Shown: positions 6,582-59,673 of the stretch, in pieces
Layout: each line of letters starts with the position of its first letter
Position numbering within the stretch: the stretch's first letter is position 1
NCBI GenBank assembly: GCA_050949565.1
Contig: JBMNFY010000001.1
Span: 64,001 to 128,000 of the forward strand
Direction: 5' to 3'
Source: Kiritimatiellia bacterium
GTDB taxonomy: Bacteria > Verrucomicrobiota > Kiritimatiellia > RFP12 > UBA1067
Length of the DNA stretch: 64,000 nucleotides
Notes under the pieces: model-generated
Told to the model about the DNA's origin: nothing
The model's database searches: none
What the model saw: the letters and a program-made list of their open reading frames with translations, nothing else
Made by a program: the position numbers and the translations under genes

Positions 6582-9469
6582 TGCGGTTCATACGCGGGAT
6601 TACGGCTCTTGTCGGATGTGCGGTTTTCGTGACGGCTGGCGGAGACGCTTGGATGGCAGCGGCGCAAAATCTGCCGAAGGACACCCTGCAGGACCTTGGC
6701 GCGCCGCCCCCGCAACCGGGCGATGAAGCGTGGACCTTCATCGAGGACCTCAAGTTACCTTTGTGGGGCAACGGCCTAGGCTGGAGCCAGCGGGCGGTGG
6801 CGGCGGACGAGGCGGACCTGAGTCGCGGCGTGCGCGTCAACGCGACCTTCCCGGATGTCGAAGGGGTGCTCAAAACGGCCTATGCTGATCTGGCGGACTT
6901 CTGCGCGGCCGCGAAGCTGCCTGCTGACGGCCCGTATGTGATTGAAACGGCAAAGGCGCAGACCCCGGTTTTTGAGGCTTACCGGATCGAGGTCGCCGCA
7001 GACCGCTGCCGGATTTTGGCTGCTGACACGGAGGGCATCCGGCGCGGCATATTCAAGGTCGAGGATATGATGCGCGAGGCTGGCGGGCCATTCCTTAAAC
7101 TGGGGACGGTTGAGCGCAAGCCCTTCATCAAGTCCCGCATCTCCCGTTGTTTCTTCGGCCCGATCAAGCGTCCGCCGCGTTACCGCGATGAACTCATGGA
7201 CGATGTTGATTATTACCCCGACCAGTACCTCAATCGGCTTGCACACGAAGGGATCAACGGATTGTGGCTCACGATCACGTTTCAGGACCTGTGCAAGACG
7301 AGTGTGGCTCCAGAGTATGGGGAGCACGCCGAGCGTCGTCTGGCCAAGCTCCGCAAGACGGTTGAACAGTGTCGGCGCTACGGTATCCGCATTTACATTT
7401 TTTCGATTGAGCCAAAAGCCTGGGAAGCCGACTCGCCGATTGTCAAACGGCATCCGGAACTCGGGCGCGACCGTATCGGGAACACCCGGCCGTTCTGTCC
7501 ATGGTCTGATATCTCGGAGCGCTATCTCTATGAATCGACGCATTTCATCTTTTCGCAGGTTCCCAACTTGGGCGGACTGATCAACATCAGCCACGGCGAG
7601 CGCCGCACGAACTGCCAGAGCGTGATTCTTCCGACTAGTGACCGGCGTTCATCCTGTCCGGTCTGTTCAACGAAGGAGCCGTGGGAGAACATTTACGCGA
7701 CTCTGACGCCCATGGCCAAAGGCATGCACGATGCCAATCCCGACGCGCACTTCATCGCCTGGTTCTACATGCCGCAAGACGATCCGCCCGCCGATTGGGT
7801 TTATGAACTTCCCAAGCACTGCCCGGAGCATATCACGGTGCAGTTCAACTTCGAATCGGGCGTGACCAAGGATGTGTTCGGCCGCGGCCGCAGAGGTGCG
7901 GACTACTGGATATCTACGCCGGGGCCGAGTCGGCGGTACGAGCGGCTGGCATCATTCGCGAAAGAGGCGGGCACGCCGATGTCGGCTAAGATTCAGACCG
8001 GTTGCTCGCACGAGGTGGCCACGATCCCGTTTGTCCCGGTGCCCGGGATGCTCTACCGCAAGTTCAGCGCGATGCATGAACTGGACGTTTCTAATGTGAT
8101 GCTCTGCTGGTATTTCGGCAACTACCCCGGCATCATGAACCGTGCGGCGGGTGAGCTTTCATTTGAGCCGTTCCCGGAGACCGAGGCAGCGTTTATGAGC
8201 CGTTTGGTCGGGCCGGAGTGGGGACGGCATGCTGAAACGGTCGCGCGTGCCATGACGCTTTTCACCGAGGGGTACGGTCATTATCCGCTGGTCACTGAAT
8301 TTCAGTATTGGGGACCCATGCATGACGGCGTTGTCTGGCCGTTGTTACTGCGGCCCCGCGATGTGCCGCTCGCGCCGACATGGCAGATCGCCTGGCACAC
8401 GGGCCAGCATATCGGAACGCCGTTCGCGCCGAGCGGCGACCGGATCGGCGAGGCGCTAGGCCAGGTTTATACCTTGTCGGAGGCGATTGAAGAGTGCCGG
8501 GTCATGAGCGACCTATGGGATCAAGGCGTGGCGCTGCTTCGTTCGGTAGAGGCCGATCCCGGCCTGCTGCCCGAGCGGCGGCTGGATATTGGCGTGGCCC
8601 GGGCATTGGGGATTCAGTTCCGCAGCGGTCTGAACATTCTCCGGTTTTATGATCTGCGCGAACGCATGGTGAACGAGCCGCCGGAGAAGCAGTTGGTGAC
8701 CCTCAAGGAGATGCGGCGCATTGTGGAGGAGGAGCACAAAAGCGGTACGGAGTTGATCAGCCTGTGTGAACGCGATTCGCGTCTGGGATTCCACTCCGAG
8801 GCCGAGGGATACAAGTACTTCCCTGAAAAAATCCGCTGGCGCATGAACCAGTTGAAGAACGTGCTCGAAAAAGAGATTCCGGTGCTTGAACGCGAGATCA
8901 CCTCCGGCAAGGATGTGTTCGCGGTGTACGCCGGACGTACGCCAGCCGGTGTGTCGTTGCATTCGCGTTACTGCGGTGAGATCGGCGACCGGATTCGCGA
9001 ACTTTCCAAAAGTCTTCCTGAGGATACGGCTTGGCAAGTGTGCGAGAAACCCTCGCCCCGCACGACCGGCGCCAAAAACTTCCGCTGGACCGTCTGCCAC
9101 GACCGCGATGCCTTTTATGTGGTGTATGACGGTGCGGATAAATCGGATCGGATCATGTTGATGCTGGAGCCGCGCCGTCTCTGGACATGCCTCCGATATG
9201 ACATGTCCGGTTCGGGAGAGAAATTATCGCAACACTCACATAAGCACGATGTGTACGCGCGGGAGGGTGCCAACGGCTGGCAGGGATGGATGCGCTTGCC
9301 CTTTGTTTCGCTCGGCATGGATGCTGCGGCACCGGCCGCATTGCGGATCAACGTCCGGCATGTGTCAGGCGGCGGCGAACGTTCATGGATCGCACGCGAT
9401 CCGTGGCCCTACAGGCTCCGGTTGTGCAATGAAAACCCCGAGGATCTCGGCTGGCTGTTTTTCAAGTAG
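6578..9469 (+). CDS. large secreted hypothetical protein with GH20/GH67-like N-terminal alpha/beta domain
   Basis: Signal peptide; EAYRIEV...ILAADTEGIRRG...KPFIKSR pattern; ATGA overlap with the previous gene. Confidence 0.5.
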   Translation: MMRFIRGITALVGCAVFVTAGGDAWMAAAQNLPKDTLQDLGAPPPQPGDEAWTFIEDLKLPLWGNGLGWSQRAVAADEADLSRGVRVNATFPDVEGVLKTAYADLADFCAAAKLPADGPYVIETAKAQTPVFEAYRIEVAADRCRILAADTEGIRRGIFKVEDMMREAGGPFLKLGTVERKPFIKSRISRCFFGPIKRPPRYRDELMDDVDYYPDQYLNRLAHEGINGLWLTITFQDLCKTSVAPEYGEHAERRLAKLRKTVEQCRRYGIRIYIFSIEPKAWEADSPIVKRHPELGRDRIGNTRPFCPWSDISERYLYESTHFIFSQVPNLGGLINISHGERRTNCQSVILPTSDRRSSCPVCSTKEPWENIYATLTPMAKGMHDANPDAHFIAWFYMPQDDPPADWVYELPKHCPEHITVQFNFESGVTKDVFGRGRRGADYWISTPGPSRRYERLASFAKEAGTPMSAKIQTGCSHEVATIPFVPVPGMLYRKFSAMHELDVSNVMLCWYFGNYPGIMNRAAGELSFEPFPETEAAFMSRLVGPEWGRHAETVARAMTLFTEGYGHYPLVTEFQYWGPMHDGVVWPLLLRPRDVPLAPTWQIAWHTGQHIGTPFAPSGDRIGEALGQVYTLSEAIEECRVMSDLWDQGVALLRSVEADPGLLPERRLDIGVARALGIQFRSGLNILRFYDLRERMVNEPPEKQLVTLKEMRRIVEEEHKSGTELISLCERDSRLGFHSEAEGYKYFPEKIRWRMNQLKNVLEKEIPVLEREITSGKDVFAVYAGRTPAGVSLHSRYCGEIGDRIRELSKSLPEDTAWQVCEKPSPRTTGAKNFRWTVCHDRDAFYVVYDGADKSDRIMLMLEPRRLWTCLRYDMSGSGEKLSQHSHKHDVYAREGANGWQGWMRLPFVSLGMDAAAPAALRINVRHVSGGGERSWIARDPWPYRLRLCNENPEDLGWLFFK

Positions 9470-10531: not shown

Positions 10532-10660
10532 TTTAACGCAGAGACGCAGAGACGCAGAGGTTTTTTGAGGGGCGCTGCGGAGCGTGGCAACGTGCTCTAG
10601 ACAAACTAACGCGGGCGAAGCCCGCAACCCAATCATGTAAATCATGTAATCATGTCAAAA
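10532..10660 (+). repeat. intergenic repeat mosaic: (ACGCAGAG)x3 + TTTTTTG, small hairpin, (AATCATGT)x3
   Basis: 10532-10567, gcgggc-gaa-gcccgc at 10611-10625, and 10631-10660; mirrored at 49275-49460. Confidence 0.8.
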
Positions 10661-29060: not shown

Positions 29061-31472
29061 CTAGATGAAGAGTGTGCTTTGGCTGTGCTTGGCCATTTCG
29101 ACGAAGCTGGCGACGCCCACGACTTCGTCGATCTCGATCAACTCGTCGCGCGTGATACCCATGACGTCCATCGCCATCTCGCACGCGACGAACCGGACAC
29201 CCAGTTCGCGGGCCTGCCGGATGAGGTCGGGGAGCGGCGTGACGTTCTGGTCGGCCATCACCCGCTTCATCATGAGCGCCCCCATGCCGCCCATGTTCAT
29301 CTTGGACAGTGCCAGCTTCTCGGTGCCCTTGGGCAACATCCAGCCGAACATCCGTCCCATCAGTGTCTTCTTGACTGGCGGCGCGGGATTTTTCCGCAGG
29401 ACGCTCAAGCCCCAGAAGGTGAAGAAGATGCCCACCTTGCTTCCGGAAGCCGCCATGCCGCAGGCGATGATCAGCGCGGCCATCACTTTGTCCAGATCAT
29501 TGCTGAAAAGGACAAGCGCCGCGCCGTGCTCGTCTGCTGTCTTTGTCGGTACGGGGGCATCCGCCGGAAGCGCCTTCCGGATCACCGCTTCAAGGTGCGT
29601 GGCTTTCTTTTCCAGGCTGAGCAGTTCGTTGCCGGTCGAGGCGATCCAGTTTTTCAAGTCCGGTTCGAAGGAGAGCTGCGCCAGCAGGCGCAGACTCGCG
29701 CCCGCGTCCCGCTCGTCAAGTGTCTGTTTGATCCGTACCACGGGTCCTGGGCAGGCAAGGGCGCGGACATCAAGCACTTCGGCATCGGTCGCGAGGGGAG
29801 CAGCGTTTTCAGTTGGCTTTGGGGCGGCGGTTTTGGGGGTCGGCGTGAACGGCGCGGGATGGAAGTAGGTCCAGGTCGTATAACCGCCCGACAAGTTGCT
29901 GACGCGGTAGCCGTTCTGGCGCAGAATACGCTCGGCGAGATAACCGCGCATACCGACCCGGCAAACGGTCACGATCTCACGGGCGGTGTCGAGTTCTTTG
30001 ATACGATCACGGAGTTGACCGAGCGGGATATTCGTGGAGCCGGGAATGGCGCCTAGCGCGACCTCCTCGGGCTCGCGAACGTCCAGAATCAGGGCGTCGG
30101 CGGGGATTTCATCGCCATGCGTCAGGTAGGTGTCGCCTTTGAGCACGTTGTCGGCGATCATGCCGGCAAAATTGACAGGGTCTTTGGCTGAGTTGAATGG
30201 CGGCGCATAGGCGAGTTCCAGGTCGGCGAGTTCTGGCGCGGTGGCGCCGCGGCACATCGCGACGGCGATCGTGTCAAGGCGCTTGGCCACGCCTTCGTGG
30301 CCGACCGCTTGCGCGCCGAGGATCTTGCCGTCGTGACCGAACAGCAGTTTGATGTGGAGCTGCGACCCACCGGGGTAATAGGTGGCGCAGGAGGCGGGGT
30401 GGTTGTAGATTTTATGGTAGGGGATTCCCATTTGCTTCAAGCGACGCTCGGTGAACCCCACGCTGCCGGCGGCCAGCGTGCCTACTTTGAGGACAGCGGT
30501 CCCGATGCTGCCGCGGTAACGCGATGTACGGCCGACCAGATTATCGGCGACGATGCGCGCCTGCTTGTTGGCAGGGCCGGCCAGCGGAATTGCCGTCTTG
30601 CCGCCGAGGATTGGGTCATTGACTTCGATTACGTCGCCTGCCGCATAGATGCTGGGATCAGAGGTCTGCAACGTGTCGTCGACGATAATGTGGCCGCGGG
30701 GGCCGACATCGAGTCCGGCGGCCTGCGCCAATTCGGAGTTGGGTTTCACGCCGACGCTCATGACCACAAGATCCGCCGGCAGTTTCTCGCCATCGTCCAG
30801 AACCGCGTGGAAGGCATCCGCAGACTTCTCGAACGCCGTAACCTTGCGCGCCAACCGCAGGGCGATGCCTGCCGAGGAGAGTTCTTGTGCCAGCGTGGTG
30901 GACATCTCTTTGTCGATTGTCGGCAACACTTGGTCGGAGAGTTCAACGAGGGTCACGTCGAGTCCCCGCTCGTTGAGATTTTCGGCGATCTCCAGTCCGA
31001 TGAAGCCCGCCCCGACGACCACGGCTGTCCGTGCGCCGCCATCGATGGCGGCAATGATGGAGTCCATGTCCGGAATCGTCCAGAGCCGCATGACGCGCGG
31101 ATCGTCAGAGCCGGGGATGTCCATCATGACCGGGGACGAGCCTGTGGCCAGAACCAGCTTGTCATAACTCTCTTGGTAGGTTCCCGTTTCGCTTCGGACC
31201 GTCACCTTTTTTGCGGCGCGGTCGACGGCGATCACCTCGCTTTTCGTGCGGACGTCCACGTTGAACCACGTCTTGAAGCGGTTCTCGGTCATCACCATCA
31301 GTGCTTCGCGCTGGGGGATGACGCCGCCTACATGGTAGGGCAGGCCGCAGTTCGCGTACGAGATGAATGCGCCGCGCTCGAACATCATGATCTCGGCCGA
31401 CTCATCCAGCCTACGCAATCTTGCGGCCACACCCGCTCCCGCTGCCACGCCGCCTACAATGACTGTCTTCAT
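29061..31472 (-). CDS. CoA-disulfide/persulfide reductase-rhodanese-TusA/SirA-DsrE fusion
   Basis: VGGVAAGA, SYANCGLPY, GAGFIGLE, LAYAPPF; rhodanese VCRVGMRG; TusA ACPGPV; DsrE2 FFTFWGL, ACEMAMDVMG. Confidence 0.9.
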   Translation of the reverse strand: MKTVIVGGVAAGAGVAARLRRLDESAEIMMFERGAFISYANCGLPYHVGGVIPQREALMVMTENRFKTWFNVDVRTKSEVIAVDRAAKKVTVRSETGTYQESYDKLVLATGSSPVMMDIPGSDDPRVMRLWTIPDMDSIIAAIDGGARTAVVVGAGFIGLEIAENLNERGLDVTLVELSDQVLPTIDKEMSTTLAQELSSAGIALRLARKVTAFEKSADAFHAVLDDGEKLPADLVVMSVGVKPNSELAQAAGLDVGPRGHIIVDDTLQTSDPSIYAAGDVIEVNDPILGGKTAIPLAGPANKQARIVADNLVGRTSRYRGSIGTAVLKVGTLAAGSVGFTERRLKQMGIPYHKIYNHPASCATYYPGGSQLHIKLLFGHDGKILGAQAVGHEGVAKRLDTIAVAMCRGATAPELADLELAYAPPFNSAKDPVNFAGMIADNVLKGDTYLTHGDEIPADALILDVREPEEVALGAIPGSTNIPLGQLRDRIKELDTAREIVTVCRVGMRGYLAERILRQNGYRVSNLSGGYTTWTYFHPAPFTPTPKTAAPKPTENAAPLATDAEVLDVRALACPGPVVRIKQTLDERDAGASLRLLAQLSFEPDLKNWIASTGNELLSLEKKATHLEAVIRKALPADAPVPTKTADEHGAALVLFSNDLDKVMAALIIACGMAASGSKVGIFFTFWGLSVLRKNPAPPVKKTLMGRMFGWMLPKGTEKLALSKMNMGGMGALMMKRVMADQNVTPLPDLIRQARELGVRFVACEMAMDVMGITRDELIEIDEVVGVASFVEMAKHSQSTLFI

Positions 31473-31744: not shown

Positions 31745-31776
31745 CTTTGCGTCTCCGCGTCTCCGCGTCTCCGCGC
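31745..31776 (-). repeat. (ACGCGGAG)-type 8-mer tandem repeat
   Basis: ctttgcgt-ctccgcgt-ctccgcgt-ctccgcgc; variant of the 10536 repeat. Confidence 0.75.
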
Positions 31777-31902
31777 TCGTGCGCCTCCTCCTTTTTTCCC
31801 GGAACCGCGCGCGACGGCATGACGCTCACCGTACCGTTTGCCACAGATGAACCCCGTGTTTTACTGAGGATTTTGGCACAGTGAATGAGCGAGGAAAAGA
31901 AA

Positions 31903-31957
31903 GGACAAGAGGCAAGAGACGCGAGACCCCTCGTCTCTCGTCTCGCGTCTCTCGCCC
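31903..31957. repeat. GAGAC-heptamer hairpin, site 1
   Basis: ggacaagaggcaagagacgcgagac-ccctc-gtctctcgtctcgcgtctctcgccc, then ctcaactgaaaggaacacc and ATG. Confidence 0.85.
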
Positions 31958-31978
31958 TCAACTGAAAGGAACACCGCC

Positions 31979-37588: not shown

Positions 37589-37664
37589 GGACAAGAAACA
37601 TGCGACAAGGGACAAGAGGAGACATGAGACGAGAGACCCCTTTCTTGTCTCACGTCTCTTGCCC
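37589..37664. repeat. GAGAC-heptamer hairpin, site 2
   Basis: ...gacaagaggagacatgagacgagagac-ccctt-tcttgtctcacgtctcttgccc. Confidence 0.85.
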
Positions 37665-37694
37665 TGGCTCTCACATCAAACCCAAAGGAACACC

Positions 37695-40600
37695 ATGATG
37701 AATGCGAAAACCATTTTGACACTTGCTTGTTCGGGCCTGTTTGCCGCCACCGCCACCGCCGCCTCCACCGGGGTGACGATCAACGGCATCATGCTCGACG
37801 ACGCCGTCTCGACCAACGACATCGGCTGGGCGTACGAGTCGGCCACCTCGAACCTCGTGCTTTCCGGTGCGGGCCCCTTCACGCTTTCCGGCACGAATAC
37901 GGAAGGGGCTGTGCGCGTCGTGGTCCCGACGGATGTGACGAACGAGGTCACGCTCTCAAACCTGACGCTCCAGGCACCGTGGAATGTCGTAACGCATTAC
38001 TGTCCCTTTGCACTGCAATCGAACGCCGTCGTCACGCTCTCCCTTGCAGGGACGAACACGCTCACGGCCACGGCGTACCGCGCGGGTCTCGATGTCCCGA
38101 TCTACGCGGAGATCACGATCACCAACGCGCCCGGCGATGACGCGGCATCGCTCACCGCACAGGGCGGCGCCTACGGTGCGGGCATCGGCTCATCCCACCG
38201 CGCAGATGCCGGCAAAATGGTTTTTTGCGGCGGTGTCGTCACGGCCACCGGCGGTAGCGACGCCGCAGGCGTCGGCGGATGCGGCACCGACAACCGAGCG
38301 GAATCCAACGGCGGTCGAGGCGGCGTGGTGTACATTTACGGCGGCACGCTTGCCGCGACGGGCAGCGGCTACAGCGCGGGCATCGGCAGCGGTTACCGGC
38401 GCGCCCTGGGCGTGGTGCGGATTTGGGGCGGCACGGTGACGGCCATCGCCGGCAACATGGGTGGCCCGGGCATCGGCGGCGGTGCCGGCGACAGCCAAAA
38501 CAGCGCCATGCACGGCGGAAAGACATACATCTACGGCGGACACGTCACCGCGACCGGCAGCAGTTACGGCGGCGCGGGCATCGGCGGCGGCTACAACGGC
38601 CCGTGCGACCCGATAACCATTACCGGCGGCACGGTGCTGGCAACGGGGCTGGGAGGCGCCTACGACATCGGACGGGGACGCGACTCCAAAAACCCCACCT
38701 ACGTCCCCCAATTCACCGGCGGCTCGATCCGCCCGGGCACCTCTGAGGTCGCACCCACGCCCAACAACGGCTCGGCAACAGTCGCCTATGTGGTGTGGTC
38801 CGGCTTCGAGCCGGGCGAACCCGTCGTTTTCCCCGCCTTCGGCTCGGGGCTCCCGGACTATTACGGCACCCATGACATTTTTGCCGACGAGGCCGGGTGC
38901 ATCTACCTCTGGTTCCCGAACGCCCGCGACAAGACCTATACGCTCGTGGCCAACGGATGTACCAATACGGTCGCGATCAAGGACGGCGTGGGATCCTCCG
39001 GCGTGACGGTCAACGGCGTGGACGCCGTTTTCGGGCCGCAGGGTTACAACGAGGGCGGCTGGTCCAACTCGAGCCGCGACATCAGGCTGTTCGGCACCGG
39101 CCCGTTCGTCGTCTCGGGCGCCAATGCGGCCAGCGGCGTCCGTTTGGTCGGCACCGCCAACGCGATGAACACGGTGGTCCTCTCGAACCTGACGCTCGGC
39201 GCGGGCGGCGACAGCCGATCCGCGCTTCTGCTGGAATCGGGCGCCAACATGACGCTTGTCCTCGAAGGCACGAACACCCTCTGGTCCGGCCCCAAGCGCG
39301 CGGGCATCGGCGTGGGGGCGGGACGGACGCTCTCCATCAACAACGCGCCCGGCGATGACGCGGCAACGCTCGTCGTCACAGGCGGCAGCGGCGGCGCTGG
39401 CATCGGTGGCAACCGATACCTCGACGGCGGCACCGTGACCATTTCCGGCGGACGGGTGCTTGCCACCGCCGGTACCAGCGGCGCGGGCATCGGCGGCGGC
39501 TCGGACGGCTCGGGCGGTTCGGTGACCATCTCCAACGCCACGGTCATCGCCATGAGCGACGCCGGCGGCGCGGGCATCGGCGGCGGTGTTGATGGCAACA
39601 ACGGCGGTACCGTCGTAATCGCCAGCGGCACGGTCACCGCAACGAGCCGCACCGGCGCGGGCATCGGCGGCGGCTCGGGGGGATCGGGTGGCTCGACGAC
39701 GATTTACGGTGGCACCGTTACGGCCACGAGCACCGGCGGCGGCGCGGGCATCGGCGGCGGCTACGATTACGGCGGCACCGGCGGTACGATCACGATTATC
39801 GACGGAAACGTGACCGCGACCGGCGGCGACGGCGGCGCTGGCATCGGCGGTGGCTACATGGGCACCGGCGGTGCCATCACGATTTCCAACGGCGTGGTGA
39901 CCGCCACGGGCGATGGCGGCGGCGCGGGCGTCGGCAGTGGTGCATATAGTGGTGATTTTGAAGACGGCTATACCGTGACAATCGCCGGCGGGCAACTCAT
40001 GGCCGCAGGCGGCGCGGGCGGCGCGGGCATCGGCGGCGGCGACAGGGGTGCCATCGGCACGGTCGCGATTTCCGGCGGTACCGTCGCGGCGACGGGCGAT
40101 GACGGCGGCGCGGGCATTGGCGGCGGCTCAGGCCCCTACAACGCCGGCGGCACCGTCAACATCTCCGGCGGCAAGGTGACGGCGACAGGCGATAATGGCG
40201 GCGCAGGCATCGGCGGCGGAGCCTGCTTCTTCTACTCCGGCACCACCGTCACGATCTCTGGCGGCACGGTCGCGGCACAAGGCTCCTTGGAGGCGCAGGA
40301 CATCGGTTCTGGTCACAACGAATACGGTGGCGGCGGTGTGAGCAGCATGGAGATGACACCGGGTAACCAAGATGACGGGCCCGGCACGAACACCTTTACC
40401 GGCGGCTCGGTCTATCTCGCGAACGACAGCATCGCCCCCGCACCCAGCAACGACACGGATCCTGTCTGGTGCGTGACGGTGACGAATCTCGTGCCCCATG
40501 CGGCGGTCACGGTCACATCGCTCGGCACCTACGGCGTCAACGACCTCTTCGCCGACGAAAACGGCAGGCTCTACCTCTGGCTGCCGGATAATGTTTACTC

Positions 40601-40916
40601 TTTCACGGCGGGCGGTTCCGGCTACACGGCTGCCGTGAACGGCGCGGATGCGACGGCGACACTCTACCTCGCGGCGCCGGTCTTCGCTGCGGACGGCTCG
40701 GCACTCGTCTTCAGCGGCACGACGCTCTCCATCACGATCGCCAACGCCCAGAGCGGGTTTTATTACACGCTCTACGGGGCACCCGAGCCCAGCGGGCCAT
40801 GGACGCCGGAGCAGAGCGTCCTCGTGACGGCGGACGGCAATCTCGTTTTTGAAAGCATTGACGCGGCGGCTCCCAGGCGCTTCTTCAAGGTGGAGGCCAG
40901 CAGTGACCAGCCGTAA
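37695..40916 (+). CDS. secreted AGIGGG-repeat protein, paralog 2 (two modules)
   Basis: SD aaggaa; MMNAKTILTLACSGLFAATATA signal peptide; ends RRFFKVEASSDQP. Confidence 0.8.
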   Translation: MMNAKTILTLACSGLFAATATAASTGVTINGIMLDDAVSTNDIGWAYESATSNLVLSGAGPFTLSGTNTEGAVRVVVPTDVTNEVTLSNLTLQAPWNVVTHYCPFALQSNAVVTLSLAGTNTLTATAYRAGLDVPIYAEITITNAPGDDAASLTAQGGAYGAGIGSSHRADAGKMVFCGGVVTATGGSDAAGVGGCGTDNRAESNGGRGGVVYIYGGTLAATGSGYSAGIGSGYRRALGVVRIWGGTVTAIAGNMGGPGIGGGAGDSQNSAMHGGKTYIYGGHVTATGSSYGGAGIGGGYNGPCDPITITGGTVLATGLGGAYDIGRGRDSKNPTYVPQFTGGSIRPGTSEVAPTPNNGSATVAYVVWSGFEPGEPVVFPAFGSGLPDYYGTHDIFADEAGCIYLWFPNARDKTYTLVANGCTNTVAIKDGVGSSGVTVNGVDAVFGPQGYNEGGWSNSSRDIRLFGTGPFVVSGANAASGVRLVGTANAMNTVVLSNLTLGAGGDSRSALLLESGANMTLVLEGTNTLWSGPKRAGIGVGAGRTLSINNAPGDDAATLVVTGGSGGAGIGGNRYLDGGTVTISGGRVLATAGTSGAGIGGGSDGSGGSVTISNATVIAMSDAGGAGIGGGVDGNNGGTVVIASGTVTATSRTGAGIGGGSGGSGGSTTIYGGTVTATSTGGGAGIGGGYDYGGTGGTITIIDGNVTATGGDGGAGIGGGYMGTGGAITISNGVVTATGDGGGAGVGSGAYSGDFEDGYTVTIAGGQLMAAGGAGGAGIGGGDRGAIGTVAISGGTVAATGDDGGAGIGGGSGPYNAGGTVNISGGKVTATGDNGGAGIGGGACFFYSGTTVTISGGTVAAQGSLEAQDIGSGHNEYGGGGVSSMEMTPGNQDDGPGTNTFTGGSVYLANDSIAPAPSNDTDPVWCVTVTNLVPHAAVTVTSLGTYGVNDLFADENGRLYLWLPDNVYSFTAGGSGYTAAVNGADATATLYLAAPVFAADGSALVFSGTTLSITIANAQSGFYYTLYGAPEPSGPWTPEQSVLVTADGNLVFESIDAAAPRRFFKVEASSDQP

Positions 40917-40918
40917 GA

Positions 40919-40940
40919 CAAGAGACATGAGACAAGAGAC
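40919..40940 (+). repeat. heptamer repeat, left boundary of the four-helix-bundle cassette
   Basis: caagagacatgagacaagagac; contains ATG 40927. Confidence 0.85.
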
Positions 40941-41709
40941 GACGCAGATCATCGGAGCATACGGCGGGTATCGCAAAACGTTCGCCTTTGGCTATACGTG
41001 TCTGGTGTACCACGCCACCTGCGCGTTCTGCCGCCGTAACTACGACCGCACTAACGACGCGCTCGGCAAGACCGTTGGTCAGATGGTGGGGGCGGCTCGC
41101 AGTGCGCGTCAAAACATCGTTGAGGGCTCGGCGCGAGCCGGAACGAGCCGCGAGACCGAACTGCGGCTCTATGACGTGGCGAAGGCTTCGCTCGAAGAAC
41201 TCGCCGGTGACTACGAGGCGTTTCTCATCGAATGCGGCGAGGCACCCTGGCGCGCGGACGATCCGCGCGCTGTGAAGGTGCTCGCGTTGCGGCTGGATCG
41301 TTTCACGGGTGATGACGCCCTCAATATACGCCATGATTTCGGTGTCTACATTCTCGCTATGCGGGAGCGGTTCGCCGAGTGGCTTGAAGCAAAGGATGCG
41401 GTGATAGCCGCGAACGCGATTCTGCTGGTGATCGACCAGGTGTGTCGGCTGTTGCACCGGCAGATGGAGTCGCTCGCGGCGGACTTCCGCGAGGAAGGCG
41501 GCTTCACGGAACGGCTCTCCAAGGCGCGTCTGGAAACACGCGATGCGCAGATGGCGGCGCAGGGCGCCCCGTCGTGTCCCAAGTGCGGCAAGCCCATGCG
41601 CAAGATGATCGCCCGCAAGGGCCGCAATGCGGGCAACCCCTTTTGGAGTTGCACCGGATATCCCGACTGCAGCGGAACACGCAATTACACGGAAGGGCAA
41701 GAGACATGA
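40927..41709 (+). CDS. four helix bundle protein (23S rRNA IVS-protein/Avd-like fold) with suffix domain and topoisomerase-type C4 Zn ribbon
   Basis: GGYRK, QMVGAARSARQNIVEGS, VAKASLEELAGDYE, FREEGGFTERL (suffix domain), CPKCGKPM...FWSCTGYPDCSGT. Confidence 0.88.
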   Translation: MRQETTQIIGAYGGYRKTFAFGYTCLVYHATCAFCRRNYDRTNDALGKTVGQMVGAARSARQNIVEGSARAGTSRETELRLYDVAKASLEELAGDYEAFLIECGEAPWRADDPRAVKVLALRLDRFTGDDALNIRHDFGVYILAMRERFAEWLEAKDAVIAANAILLVIDQVCRLLHRQMESLAADFREEGGFTERLSKARLETRDAQMAAQGAPSCPKCGKPMRKMIARKGRNAGNPFWSCTGYPDCSGTRNYTEGQET

Positions 41710-41753
41710 GACGCGAGACCCCATCCCGTCTCTTGTCTCATGTCTCTTGCCCT
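41694..41753. repeat. GAGAC-heptamer hairpin, site 3 (26-bp arms, 2 mismatches)
   Basis: agggcaagagacatgagacgcgagac-cccatccc-gtctcttgtctcatgtctcttgccct; contains TGA 41707-41709. Confidence 0.9.
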
Positions 41754-41773
41754 CAACCCAAAGGAACACCATT

Positions 41774-44227
41774 GTGAATGCGAAAACCATTTTGACATTT
41801 GCTTATGCGGGCCTGTTTGCGGCCACCGCCAGCGCCGCCCCGCTCGGCGTGACGGTCAATGACATCATGCTCGACTCCGACGGCGCATCCGACATCGGCT
41901 GGACATACGAACCGGCCACCTCGAACCTCGTGCTTTCCGGCGCGGGTCCCTTCACGCTGGCCGGCACGAACACGGAAGGGGCTGTGCGCGTCGTGGTCCC
42001 GACGGATGTAACGAATACAGTCAAGCTCGCGAACCTGACGCTCAAAGCGACGAGTGCAAATCAATGCGCCTTCGAGCTGGGAACGCGTGCCAACGTCTCG
42101 CTCATCCTCGCAGGCGCGAACACGCTCGCATCGGGCAGCAACCGCGCGGGGCTCCAAGTTGCGGTGGGGCGGACCCTCTCCATCACCAACGCGCCGGGCG
42201 ACGAGACGGCATCGCTCTCCGCCACAGGCGGAGGCAGCAGCGCGGGCATCGGCAGCGGCTACAACATCAACGGCGGCAGGGTGACCATCAACGGCGGGGA
42301 AATCACGGCCAAGGGCGGCAGCAACGGCGCGGGCATCGGCGGCGGCTACTATGGCGACGGCGGCAGGGTGACCATCAACGGCGGCACGGTGATGGCGCAG
42401 GGCGGCAGCTACGGCGCGGGCATCGGCGGGGGCTACTATGATCACGGCGGCATCGTGACCATCAACGGCGGAGAAATCACGGCCACGGGCGGGAGCTGCG
42501 CCGCAGGCATCGGCGGAAGCTACAATCGAAGCGGCAACACGACCATCAACGGTGGCACGGTCACGGTCAAGGGCGGTCTCGACGGCGCAGGCATCGGCGG
42601 CGGCTACAAGCGTTCCTGCGGCACGGTGGCCATCACCGGCGGCATCGTGCAGGCAGTGAGCCTGGGCCACGGCGCGGGCATCGGCAATGCCTTCGAAGCA
42701 AGCGCGGGAGGAACGGTCTACAATCTCCGGCGGTACGGTCACGGCTACGGGCGGCGATTATGCCGCCGGTATCGGTGGCGGTAACAACGGCGGCGGCTGC
42801 GCGGTCGAAATCTCCGGCGGCACAGTGACGGCGACAGGCGGCTACTACGGCGCGGGCATCGGCGGCGGCCAATACAGAGACGGTTGCACAGTCGAAATCT
42901 CCAGTGGCACAGTGACGGCGACAGGCGGCCAGTGCGGCGCGGGCATCGGCGGCGGTTATGGCGGCACCGGCGGCACGAACATCATTTCCGGCGGCACGGT
43001 CGCGGCGACGGGGGGCCGCTACGGTGCCGGCATCGGCGGCGGCATCGGCGGCGCAGGCGGCGCAGTGACCATCAGCGGCGGTATCGTGACAGCCACAGGC
43101 AGCGACTTTTACGGTGCGGGCATCGGTGGTGGCGGCGGTGGCGGTGGCGGCGTGGTGACCATCTCCGGAGGCACCGTCACGGCCAACGGCGTCCTTTTGG
43201 GCGCGGGTATAGGCTCGGGCGGCTATGCCGACGCGTCATCCGGCGGCGACGGCGGTACGGTGACCATCACCGGCGGCTCCGTCACGGCCGGCGGCGGCGA
43301 TTTCGCGGCCGGCATCGGCGGCGGCGATGGCGACGCGGGCGGCACGACAACTATCTCCGGCGGCGAGATCACCGCTACCGGCGGCCAATACGGCGCCGGC
43401 ATCGGCGGCGGCAACAACAACGGGGTCATCGAAGGAAACACCATCGAGAACGCAGGCCCGGGCGGCACGGTGAACATCACCGGCGGACGGGTTACCGCGA
43501 CCGGCGGCAAGTGTGCCGCGGGCATCGGTGGCGGTACCGGCCAGCAGGTTGCTGGCAGTGAAGGTGCAGTCCTGACCGTCTCCGGCGGCACGGTCTTCGC
43601 GATCGGCGGCGCGGGCGGTGCGCCGGGCATCGGCCCCGGCCTTGGCAATGTGGAGGAAGGCGACACCGGGAACTTGCCGGAGGCCTCCGGCACGAGCCTC
43701 TTCACCGGTGGCTCCATCCGCATTGATGGCGGCTATGCAGCAGCCGCGCCCTCGAACAGCTTACGGAGCGCGTCTGGTGCGTGACGGTGACGAACCTCAC
43801 GCCCAATGCGGCAGTCGTCGTAACAGCGCTCGGCGCCTACGGCGTCGTCGACCTCTTCGCCGATGAAACCGGCAAGCTCTACCTCTGGCTACCCAACGAC
43901 GACTACGCCTTCACGGCGGGTGGCTTTGGTTACACGGCGACCGTCGCCGGTGCGGCGGCCACGGCTACCCGTAGCCTCCCCGTGCCGGTCTTCGCCACGG
44001 ACGGATCGGCGATTGTTGTCAGCGGCACGACGCTCTCCATCAAGATCACCAACGCCCAGGTCGGGGCTTATTACACGCTCTACTGGACGGACACGCTGGG
44101 CGGAACCTGGAATAAAGGCCCGAGCATCCAAGCGGCGACGGGTGGCGACCTCGTCCTCACAACGAACATCGACGCGACGGCGTCGTGCCGCTTCTTCAAG
44201 GTGAGGGCCAGCGAAACCCAGCCGTAG
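41774..44227 (+). CDS. secreted AGIGGG-repeat protein, paralog 3; frameshifts near 42720 and 43765
   Basis: GTG start with the same leader as paralog 2; ORFs 41627, 42687 and 43781 join into one protein ending CRFFKVRASETQP. Confidence 0.7.
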
Positions 44228-44233
44228 GGTGGG

Positions 44234-44335
44234 GGAGGGCAAGAGACAAGAGACGAGGTGTCTCCTCTTGTCTCGCGCCTCTTGCCCTCCTAACCCCAAC
44301 TCCTAAATCCTACCTCCTAAATCCCAAATTCCAAC
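44234..44335. repeat. GAGAC-heptamer hairpin, site 4, followed by TCCTAAA-type heptamers
   Basis: ggagggcaagagacaagagacgagg-tgtct-cctcttgtctcgcgcctcttgccctcc; then aactcctaaatcctacctcctaaa. Confidence 0.8.
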
Positions 44336-44340
44336 CAGCC

Positions 44341-45780
44341 ATGAACAACACAACCACCAACCACAACACCCCATCTCGCATGATGCGCCTTTGCGCCTTC
44401 GCGCTCGCGCACATCGTGACCCTCCTCCCCCTGACCGCATCCGCCGCCGGCTTTGGCGGCGAAACCTGCGGTCGCTACACGTACACGATCGATGAAAACA
44501 AAGCCATTATCATAGGCTTCGACGACTACGAATACGAAGGCGACCTCATCATCACCAATCAACTCGACAACTACACTGTCACGGGTATTGGCCAGAGTGC
44601 CTTTGCCTACCGTTCCACCCTCACGTCCGTGACCATCCCCGACACCGTCACGACCATCGAATACCGGGCCTTCGCGAACTGTGCCTCCCTCACGAACCTC
44701 TTCATCCCCAACAGCGTCACCAACATCGACTATGGTGCCGATCATGGTGTCGTTCAAGGAAGTCCTTTGCTCATCCACATCACCGTTGCGGATGACAACG
44801 AAACCTACGCCGACATCGACGGCGTGCTGTTCGACAAAGCATGCTCCACCCTGCTGGCTTGTCCCAACGGCCGCGCCGGTGCCTACGCGATCCCCGACGG
44901 CGTCACGACCATCGTTGCCGAAGCCCTCAGGTACTGCACGGCCCTCACCAGCATCACCCTTCCCGACAGCCTTGCGACCATCGGCAAAGACGCCTTCGAG
45001 GACTGCACGTCCCTCACCAACATCACCGTGGCAGCGGACAACCCGAACCATGCCAGCGAAGACGGTGTGCTGTTCGACAACGGTCTTACCACATTGCTGA
45101 CATGTCCCGCCGGTTTCTCCGGCGCCTACGCCGTCCCCGACGGCGTGACCGCCATCGCCGATTGGGCTTTCCGTAATCGTACCGGTCTCACGGCCGTCAC
45201 CCTCCCCGACACCGTCACGACCATCGGATACCAAGCCTTCGATTGCTGCACCGCCCTGACCTCCATCACCATTCCCGATAGCGTCACGAACATCAGTTAC
45301 GGCGCCTTCGCGGATTGTACCGCTCTGCCGTCCATCATCATCCCCGGAAGCGTGAAGCACCTCGAATCCTATACCTTCGGCGGCTGTGAATCCCTGACCT
45401 CCGTCCTCTTCACCGGCAACGCCCCAACACCCGATTGGTATAACAACGCTTTTGCCTATACATCCCCCACACTCACATTCTACTATCTCCCCAACACAAA
45501 AAATTGGGGGGCCAAATTCTACGGGCGTCCCGTTGTCTGCTGGAATCCTGCCTTCAGCACCATCCCGCCGCCGCAAATCGACGCCTCGGGCGCGTTTGCC
45601 TTTACCCTCACCGGCAATACGGACATCCCCGTCCGCGTCGAAGCCTGCGACAATCTTGTCTCCACGCTATGGGTCACCGTCACCAATGCCACCATGTCAA
45701 GCGACGGCACCCTTGACTTCACCGACCCCGACGCCGCCTCCCATCCCTCGCGTTTCTACCGCTTCACCTTCCCGCATTAA
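44341..45780 (+). CDS. BspA-type leucine-rich repeat surface protein
   Basis: Repeated LTSVTIPDTVTTIxxxAFxxC; signal peptide; ends FTDPDAASHPSRFYR. Confidence 0.9.
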   Translation: MNNTTTNHNTPSRMMRLCAFALAHIVTLLPLTASAAGFGGETCGRYTYTIDENKAIIIGFDDYEYEGDLIITNQLDNYTVTGIGQSAFAYRSTLTSVTIPDTVTTIEYRAFANCASLTNLFIPNSVTNIDYGADHGVVQGSPLLIHITVADDNETYADIDGVLFDKACSTLLACPNGRAGAYAIPDGVTTIVAEALRYCTALTSITLPDSLATIGKDAFEDCTSLTNITVAADNPNHASEDGVLFDNGLTTLLTCPAGFSGAYAVPDGVTAIADWAFRNRTGLTAVTLPDTVTTIGYQAFDCCTALTSITIPDSVTNISYGAFADCTALPSIIIPGSVKHLESYTFGGCESLTSVLFTGNAPTPDWYNNAFAYTSPTLTFYYLPNTKNWGAKFYGRPVVCWNPAFSTIPPPQIDASGAFAFTLTGNTDIPVRVEACDNLVSTLWVTVTNATMSSDGTLDFTDPDAASHPSRFYRFTFPH

Positions 45781-49274: not shown

Positions 49275-49480
49275 TTTGACATGATTAACATGATTAACAT
49301 GATTAACATGATTTGGAGGGCGAGTGTCCCCACGAGCCGCCGAGGCGGGCAATGGAGGGCGAGTGTCCCCACGAGCCGTCTTCCGCTGTGCGGAAGGATG
49401 GTTTCGATTTTCACTGCGGAGCACCAAAAATCTCTGCGTCTCTGCGTCTCTGCATTAAAAAAACGTTCAACGCTCAATTT
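49275..49480 (-). repeat. intergenic repeat mosaic: (ACATGATTA)x4, two 26-bp REP-like direct repeats, (CTCTGCGT)x3, AACGTTC heptamers
   Basis: 49275-49314; tggagggcgagtgtccccacgagccg at 49314-49339 and 49353-49378; 49426-49460; 49462-49478. Confidence 0.85.
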
Positions 49481-52243: not shown

Positions 52244-52369
52244 CGAAGCGCAGCCAACCCGGTCACAAATAGCGCTGTACTCTTCTCACACGAAGGCAAA
52301 GCACTAAGGTTTTGGGGAGGGGCAGGGCTGACCGCAAGTCGCAAGTCGCGGGTCACGCACGAGTCAACC

Positions 52370-59580: not shown

Positions 59581-59649
59581 AATTGGACAAGGCAGGTTTT
59601 CGCGCACAGCTGCGCTGCCGCGCTGTGCGCGTTGTGCGCGGAGTTGACA

Positions 59650-59673
59650 TTTAGGAGTTAGGATTTAGGAGTT
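59650..59673 (-). repeat. TCCTAAA-type heptamer repeat
   Basis: Reverse complement matches 44298-44321 at 23/24. Confidence 0.75.

Follow-up and report, generated by a model that had tools for sequence, protein, structure and literature searches.

A four-helix-bundle gene bounded by GAGAC heptamer arrays as a probable mobile cassette in a Kiritimatiellia genome

The segment at 40919-41753 of the stretch analyzed here (64,000 nt of the Kiritimatiellia contig JBMNFY010000001.1, hereafter the window) is best read, with a probability of about 0.6, as a discrete, horizontally mobile cassette whose DNA passes from one hairpin of its own repeat word to another by means of host functions. In it, a gene of the TIGR04258 family, whose product would join a fold related to the intervening sequence (IVS) protein and to Avd with a C4 zinc ribbon, appears to be fused at both ends to arrays of xxGAGAC heptamers, with a hairpin (arms L′ and R) on the 3′ side of the gene and a matching array (arm L) on its 5′ side (Table 1). 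Homologues were searched for in 41 genomes, comprising the one that contains the window (G000) and 40 relatives, and metagenome contigs (loci L166, L170 and L171) supplied three further lineages carrying the cassette.

The cassette had been suspected of mobility in the initial annotation, and this is supported by its low synonymous divergence (dS) relative to rpoB and by its different context in L171. The closest homologue of the 260-amino acid (aa) protein among the 40 relatives, with 94% aa identity, belongs to G029, a member of another family, and another genome from outside the family has a homologue with 77% identity; the best homologues in the six genomes of the same genus are at most 50% identical. 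Between G000 and G029, the cassette open reading frame (ORF) shows nucleotide and aa identities of 0.914 and 0.938, a dS of 0.32 and a non-synonymous divergence (dN) of 0.032, while for rpoB the nucleotide identity is 0.736, with a dS of 1.08 and a dN of 0.188; judging from these sequences, the cassette unit is much younger than the genomes carrying it. Compared in 60-nt bins, the same two genomes share 52-58 of 60 positions where a bin falls entirely within the ORF and 16-48 of 60 in the upstream gene, and past the right arm R their sequences can no longer be aligned. Identity to the window upstream of, within and downstream of the cassette amounts to 0.706, 0.907 and 0.437 in G029, 0.779, 0.932 and 0.669 in L166, 0.738, 0.875 and 0.680 in L170, and 0.44, 0.854 and 0.469 in L171. 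In these alignments, similarity between the cassette copies ends at the arms, in agreement with the earlier view of the gene and its arms as a bounded cassette.

In L171, the cassette is located between an outer-membrane-protein-like gene and an LRR_5 (leucine-rich repeat, LRR) gene. There, the hairpin and leader on the 3′ side of the cassette, together with the TCCTAA heptamers and the LRR gene, can be aligned at 67-74% identity with the window hairpin at 44229-44290 and the gene starting at 44341 (positions 2320-2483 of L171 match 44266-44432 at 74%); therefore, a site that is empty in the window is filled in L171. The nearest relative of the L171 copy in this genome is the cassette itself, which lies 2.5 kb from that empty hairpin. 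Close copies occupy different neighborhoods, and always beside a GAGAC hairpin of a type that also exists without a gene.

The 15-mer CAAGAGACATGAGAC is present as exact copies at 40919-40933 and 41698-41712 on the forward strand, with its reverse complement at 41735-41749, and if up to two mismatches are allowed the window contains it 11 times, where 0.08 occurrences would be expected and none of 100 shuffles reaches 11. A chance origin of the repeats and flanks was rejected on account of this excess and of the flank frequencies described below. As initially annotated, the two direct copies are spaced 779 nt apart, the left one providing the ATG (40927-40929) and the right one the TGA (41707-41709) of the ORF; since both belong to one heptamer-array family, they do not represent independent events. 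The local hairpin, also as annotated, has 26-nt arms that are 92% complementary (24/26), separated by an 8-nt loop, and the complementary termini L and R can pair across 785 nt, enclosing the ORF; folded as RNA, the local hairpin has an energy of -45.3 kcal/mol and the L-R duplex one of -41.1 kcal/mol. The long-range stem had been described as pairing 22/22 and as superior to the local one: the pairing is present, and with 23/23 exceeds the claim by one pair, but its superiority is peculiar to this genome among the five close copies. With this genome first, L-R pairing in these copies is 23/23, 20/24, 23/26 (L170), 12/12 (G029) and 7/7 (L171), and local L′-R pairing is 24/26, 23/26, 8/10 (in L170, where L′ is degenerate), 11/12 (in another register) and 23/27.

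The notion that the repeat supplies both start and stop also holds in part. A stop codon in the first heptamer unit (TGAGAC or TTAGAC) is general across the subclade, but a start codon within the arm is restricted to the copies following beta-helix genes, and G032, L119, L171 and L172 have a complete upstream hairpin and their own Shine-Dalgarno sequence before the gene. The two codons would lie within the repeat as a result of the ORF bordering on the arrays or extending into them, TGAGAC containing TGA and CATGAGAC containing ATG; together with mobility of the cassette, the most likely account is that the duplication of L as L′, like the position of both codons within the repeat, follows from the fusion of the ORF to the arrays. 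All three empty hairpins to which the locus had been likened, near 31903, 37589 and 44234, are present and consist of the same xxGAGAC heptamers. Downstream of the third, at 44291-44340, a run of TCCTAA-type heptamers occupies the interval up to the LRR_5 start, so that two word families abut, as they do in L171.

The same design, with its own word each time, surrounds most members of the protein family. In this genome we identified 15 PF05635-like genes (nine short and six long), nearly all of them with inverted flanking arrays of a 6-8-base word which differs from gene to gene (GAATCGA, AGTCGCx, CACCCAG, TAGTGGC, GGTTCAA, GTGCGAx, GGTTTCx, GGAGTTA, GAATAAx, GTGAAGx and GAACGCA). Such flanks, defined as 190-nt upstream and downstream segments sharing at least seven reverse-complement 7-mers and containing some 5-mer at least six times, accompany 10 of the 15 genes in this genome and 48 of the 73 family genes in all 41 genomes (32/38 short-form and 16/35 long-form), versus 109 of 3250 other ORFs of this genome taken as a control. 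Homologous genes thus have flanks of this kind as a rule. At least four GAGAC/GTCTC words are found in the flanks of 8/10 relatives that are at least 70% identical to the cassette protein versus 2/57 relatives below 70%, while more distant long-form genes have other words, many with a GAC core, and at least three GAC/GTC pairs spaced 7 or 8 nt apart occur next to 36/67 long-form genes, 3/37 short-form genes and 95/3284 control ORFs, all of these word counts overstating significance because related sequences are not independent. By this measure, the repeat word tracks the protein subclade, and GAGAC goes with the subclade of this cassette.

Short tandem heptamer arrays constitute a long-standing unexplained repeat class. 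The present genome contains 680 arrays of period 7 or 8, drawn from a limited set of word families, and 659 of 691 raw calls lie far from four-helix-bundle genes. Words of its own family genes make up 118 (TTAGGA), 68 (GGTTTC), 35 (GAACGC) and 8 (GAGAC) arrays, six of the eight GAGAC arrays being more than 400 bp away from any family gene. Further word families include ACGCAGAG and GTTGA, and examples of period-7/8 arrays within the window are found at 10534-10561, 31745-31777, 49429-49456, 52333-52354 and 59649-59673. Outside the window, a 126-aa GxxExxY-type gene (G000:C15:17343-17723) has GCAGA-core flanks with 18 shared reverse-complement 7-mers and a top 5-mer occurring 16 times; the armed-cassette design may therefore extend beyond four-helix-bundle genes. 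At locus L076 (on G002:C243), an ORF-less hairpin made up of GAATCGA, a word that in this genus also belongs to a different long-form cassette, is located just 3′ of a beta-helix stop codon, and beta-helix gene ends therefore attract hairpins of more than one word. A full-text literature search, the coverage of which excluded subscription journals and supplements, returned no paper connecting TIGR04258 or the four-helix-bundle family with flanking heptamer arrays.

The cassette protein scores 65.2 bits with the NCBIfam model TIGR04258 (four helix bundle suffix domain-containing protein; cut-off 40) over residues 159-205, which places it in that family, while its scores with TIGR02436 (21.3 bits, cut-off 24) and PF05635 (21.6 bits, cut-off 33.8) fall below threshold and only helices 2-3 match. 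In a profile comparison by hhalign, an alignment of 23 relatives of the protein, with the family motif around AARS..NI.EGS.R, matched the short-form profile built from 19 canonical family members of 115-142 residues with 88.5% probability (E 2.7e-6, 66 columns). In the AlphaFold model (pLDDT 87.5), two long helices extend from a helical bundle and lead to a ribbon of three strands; the top Foldseek match of this model is 2gsc, a pentameric family member (chains A and B; probability 1.00, TM 0.73-0.77 on the target, E 0.15). The profile and fold comparisons together establish that the N-terminal helical core is homologous to TIGR02436/PF05635, the 23S rRNA IVS protein. For the tail, Foldseek returned the Zf-GRF domain 5u6z with a probability of 0.99, and the four cysteines C217, C220, C242 and C248, in CxxC...CxxxxxC spacing, are invariant in the 23 sequences; PF01396, the topoisomerase-type C4 zinc ribbon, reaches 29.1 bits against the Pfam cut-off of 32. 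In a sequence search of the PDB, zinc-finger and topoisomerase ribbons alone were matched, at E 3e-4 or worse. The four-helix-bundle and zinc-ribbon models are the only Pfam and NCBIfam matches of the protein, and the Avd equivalog model NF033474 gave no match at E up to 0.01. With a dN/dS of 0.10 relative to G029, the ORF is under purifying selection. To our knowledge, the four-helix-bundle/23S rRNA IVS protein family, although very large, has no known function outside diversity-generating retroelements (DGRs). A 2182-nt contig (L155) in a metagenome-assembled bin of Syntrophales carries at its end a sequence matching residues 6-76 of the protein at 99% identity; it is probably a mis-binned piece of the present species rather than a transfer.

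Table 1. Features of the cassette at 40919-41753 and of its neighborhood (window coordinates)
Feature	Position	Strand	Remarks
ORF-less GAGAC-heptamer hairpin	~31903..31962	+	5′ of a paralogous beta-helix gene; RNA fold -30.6 kcal/mol; G029 orthologue is L071
ORF-less GAGAC-heptamer hairpin	~37589..37665	+	5′ of the beta-helix gene starting at 37695; RNA fold -30.9 kcal/mol
Upstream beta-helix repeat surface-protein gene	37695..40916	+	PF18889 Beta_helix_3, 132 bits; product ends in RRFFKVEASSDQP; stop 10 nt 5′ of the cassette ATG
Distal left arm L	40919..40941	+	Units CAAGAGA-CATGAGA-CAAGAGA plus CG; holds ATG 40927; 23/23 complementary to 41727-41749
Four-helix-bundle ORF	40927..41709	+	260 aa: four-helix-bundle core, "suffix" helices, predicted C-terminal C4 zinc ribbon
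Proximal left arm L′	41694..41719	+	Direct repeat of L (91% identical); last codons and TGA 41707-41709; 24/26 with R
Hairpin loop	41720..41727	+	8 nt, CCCATCCC
Right arm R	41728..41753	+	Inverted heptamers GTCTCTT-GTCTCAT-GTCTCTT-GCCCT; similarity to the G029 copy stops within R
Leader	41754..41773	+	Shine-Dalgarno-like AAAGGAA for the downstream beta-helix gene; common to empty hairpin sites (alignment)
Downstream beta-helix gene	41774..44227	+	Readable only in three successive frames
ORF-less GAGAC-heptamer hairpin	~44229..44290	+	TCCTAA-type heptamers, then the LRR_5 gene, on its 3′ side; RNA fold -36.3 kcal/mol; homologous to the hairpin 3′ of the L171 cassette
BspA-type LRR_5 gene	44341..45780	+	PF13306, 176 bits; homologue directly 3′ of the cassette in L171

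The cassette is neighbored by four Beta_helix_3 surface-protein genes and the BspA-type LRR gene, amid housekeeping genes. The 27 ORFs between 21 and 62 kb contain no transposase, integrase, recombinase or reverse transcriptase (RT) domains, in accord with the earlier proposal of a cassette without a recombinase of its own; readings as a DGR and as an integron were rejected, there being neither an RT nor an integrase among these ORFs. The three frames of the downstream beta-helix gene correspond to ORFs at 41774-42784, 42687-43784 and 43781-44227; the gene may be a pseudogene or one read with programmed shifts, unless the assembly has introduced indels into its G-rich repeats. A contig at strain level (L164) agrees with the window at 99% identity over 41754-42433. 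An Rfam search of 31-46 kb returned no family at gathering score, no rRNA match, and only sub-threshold microRNA-like hairpin matches; a sub-threshold V_AS7 match in an oxidoreductase gene region at 31288-31453 (42.5 bits against a gathering score of 90, E 2e-5) is probably due to chance.

The element may alternatively act at the RNA level in the manner of an IVS, so that the arms (L-R or L′-R) would pair in a polycistronic surface-protein mRNA and be cut by RNase III, with the ORF being released or silenced, or the flanking genes uncoupled; a cassette processed out in this way would be tolerated in operons, which is compatible with mobility of its DNA. The ORF does lie between complementary arrays, with the RNA folding energies given above, in L170 it is placed in the loop of a 23/26 L-R stem in the absence of any L′, and one compensatory change between G000 and G029, from A-T to G-C, preserves L-R pairing, but the distal stem is not conserved, being reduced to 12/12 in G029 and 7/7 in L171. 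Moreover, mismatches on the sense strand of 56 arm pairs comprise 58 G·U versus 83 A·C (and 160 others), giving no sign of wobble tolerance in the sense transcript, and because of this lack of a G·U excess the initially proposed mRNA intervening sequence or RNA switch gains no support. Read-through transcription is likely, since a scan found no promoter-like site between the genes flanking the cassette and, among four terminator-like sites, three lie on the minus strand and the only one on the plus strand is within the upstream gene (40576-40588); the contigs of the single RNA run (X17) matched only 41807-41841 and 41986-42186, which are parts of the downstream beta-helix gene. The Coxiella IVS, whose gene belongs to the same superfamily, is excised by RNase III (PMC4990558), whereas the present element lies outside any rRNA gene and corresponds to no Rfam family at gathering score. 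On balance, we consider action as an RNA-level element, including processing out of operons, to be unlikely. A role specific to a surface-protein operon, which had also been entertained, is likewise unlikely, as relatives of the cassette occupy many unrelated contexts, and no functional tie between the cassette and surface-protein genes emerged.

It is still less probable that the gene is simply a resident among host repeats, the hairpins being repetitive extragenic palindromic (REP)-like or regulatory elements and the similarity between genomes resulting from purifying selection. Most period-7/8 arrays in this genome are indeed far from four-helix-bundle genes, GAGAC hairpins accompany beta-helix genes with or without an ORF in G000, G002, G004 and G029, and arrays are present in nine genomes where no close relative of the cassette gene was found. 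A resident gene, however, is at odds with a cassette dS that is about one third of the rpoB value for the same pair of genomes and with the unrelated neighborhood in L171, and inverted arrays are far more frequent around family genes than around control ORFs, with a word that co-varies with the protein subclade.

Several observations weigh against a mobile cassette. The fast evolution of the neighboring surface-protein genes is enough to make the cassette stand out more strongly from its flanks, an objection that only the dS comparison with rpoB and the L171 context escape. In the search for junctions and alleles, which covered assembled contigs, with four sequencing runs compared with the locus, there was no excision product or circle joint, although such contigs hide rare forms; the anticipated release of a 779-bp circle thus finds no counterpart there, and contigs from three studies all match the filled allele exactly (0 differences). 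In the sole contig that skips 40920-41693 (X7 record 16), 59 bases could be aligned and 6 of them are different, and there are four extra letters and two further skips; being diverged and further gapped, this contig is read as a related empty hairpin and not as excision of the window copy. No empty allele was found at a strictly orthologous position in the six same-genus genomes, where a DNA search gave only paralogous beta-helix ends, or in G038, a congener of G029 with no alignable locus, these loci being too diverged or too paralogous for such an allele to be recovered. The filled and empty alleles that had been expected in relatives are represented by the 44229-44290 hairpin, filled in L171, but not by a clean empty allele of the present locus. 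In addition, GAGAC arrays are present in 12 of the 41 genomes, only three of which (this genome included) hold a relative that is at least 70% identical, and the arrays hence persist without the cassette gene. Homology of 15-23 bp is short for RecA-type recombination, and the binding of the protein to its word is putative.

If the cassette is indeed mobile at the DNA level, the unit would enter or leave GAGAC hairpins by virtue of the sequence homology, or else the secondary structure, that the heptamer arrays provide, and host functions would act in place of a recombinase of its own, possibly by Campbell-type recombination or by L/L′ slippage. In L052 (G004:C178, ~7372-7400, same genus), a GAGAC left arm passes without interruption into the ATGAGACAC start of a beta-helix gene, and both a right arm and a Shine-Dalgarno leader are missing, in what looks like a deletion between heptamer-like units; recombination or deletion between such units therefore does occur. 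The protein, a likely oligomeric binder of single-stranded nucleic acid, would recognize the array of its own word, and the sole hint of a link between the zinc ribbon and the repeat is the enrichment of GAC-core words around the members that carry the ribbon. Having no promoter-like site of its own, the cassette gene would probably be co-transcribed with the upstream surface-protein gene.

In a wider and more speculative sense, it is conceivable, if tentative, that four-helix-bundle proteins are sequence-specific partners of short tandem heptamer arrays, each subclade with its own word and the zinc-ribbon clade with a GAC core, and that together with host replication and repair they would spread ORF-less arrays along with a gene-bearing master copy. 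If true, this would amount to a new class of mobile elements without a transposase, and would jointly explain the rRNA intervening sequences, the heptamer repeats of cyanobacterial type, and a very large family of "hypothetical proteins". The locus provides concrete, datable evidence that gene and arms may travel together from lineage to lineage and from one hairpin site to another in the absence of a transposase: it adds dated evidence for a transfer with boundaries at the arms, a filled/empty pair, and the connection between the zinc-ribbon clade and GAC-core words, and it shows that neither the location of the start codon in an arm nor the superiority of the long-range stem is general, both being local features. 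A vague association of a family with repeats thereby becomes testable as protein-word binding, arm-mediated insertion and excision, and RNase III processing.

Comparison with known systems shows that the protein family is already catalogued, as TIGR04258, and that the nearest analogues of the cassette are the ORF-bearing rRNA intervening sequences and the REPIN-RAYT systems. With the TIGR04258 and TIGR02436 families the protein shares membership in the former, homologous N-terminal helices and a 2gsc-like fold; the searched libraries assign neither of these families a function or a genetic context. It differs from the Avd of DGRs, since it does not match NF033474 and no RT is found in the 27 ORFs scanned, template and variable repeats not having been searched. 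Like integron cassettes, the unit consists of a promoterless single ORF with an imperfect inverted repeat, and the idea of a circular intermediate and one recombination site is similar; unlike them, its arms are tandem heptamers and not attC sites with R and L boxes, there is no array of unrelated cassettes, and no integrase is present in the scanned ORFs, although intI was not sought genome-wide.

Intervening sequences of 23S rRNA resemble the cassette in that a small ORF of the same superfamily (S23p/PF05635/TIGR02436 fold) is enclosed by complementary termini, and in being sporadic, horizontally acquired, and without a recombinase of their own; that of Leptospira, reportedly described by Ralph and McClelland in 1993, is said to be one such ORF-bearing sequence. 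The cassette is distinguished from them by its position between two beta-helix protein genes rather than in helix 25 or 45 of 23S rRNA, by arms built of tandem copies of a 7-base word that is particular to its protein subclade, and by a long-form protein with suffix helices and a putative zinc ribbon. The ORF-bearing 23S rRNA IVS of Coxiella burnetii is excised by RNase III (PMC4990558), while such processing of the cassette is hypothetical. In REPIN-RAYT systems (Bertels and Rainey 2011, PMC3116915), hairpin repeats are dispersed in the genome and the associated gene is flanked by its own repeat type; the cassette is similar in combining a single-copy gene with cognate hairpin repeats that are also dispersed, and in the pairing of repeat families with gene subfamilies. 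In contrast to these systems, the cassette encodes a helical bundle that carries a putative zinc ribbon and not a Y1/HUH transposase, its repeats are tandem heptamer arrays and not REP palindromes of 20-25 nt, and the gene apparently travels from genome to genome together with its arms.

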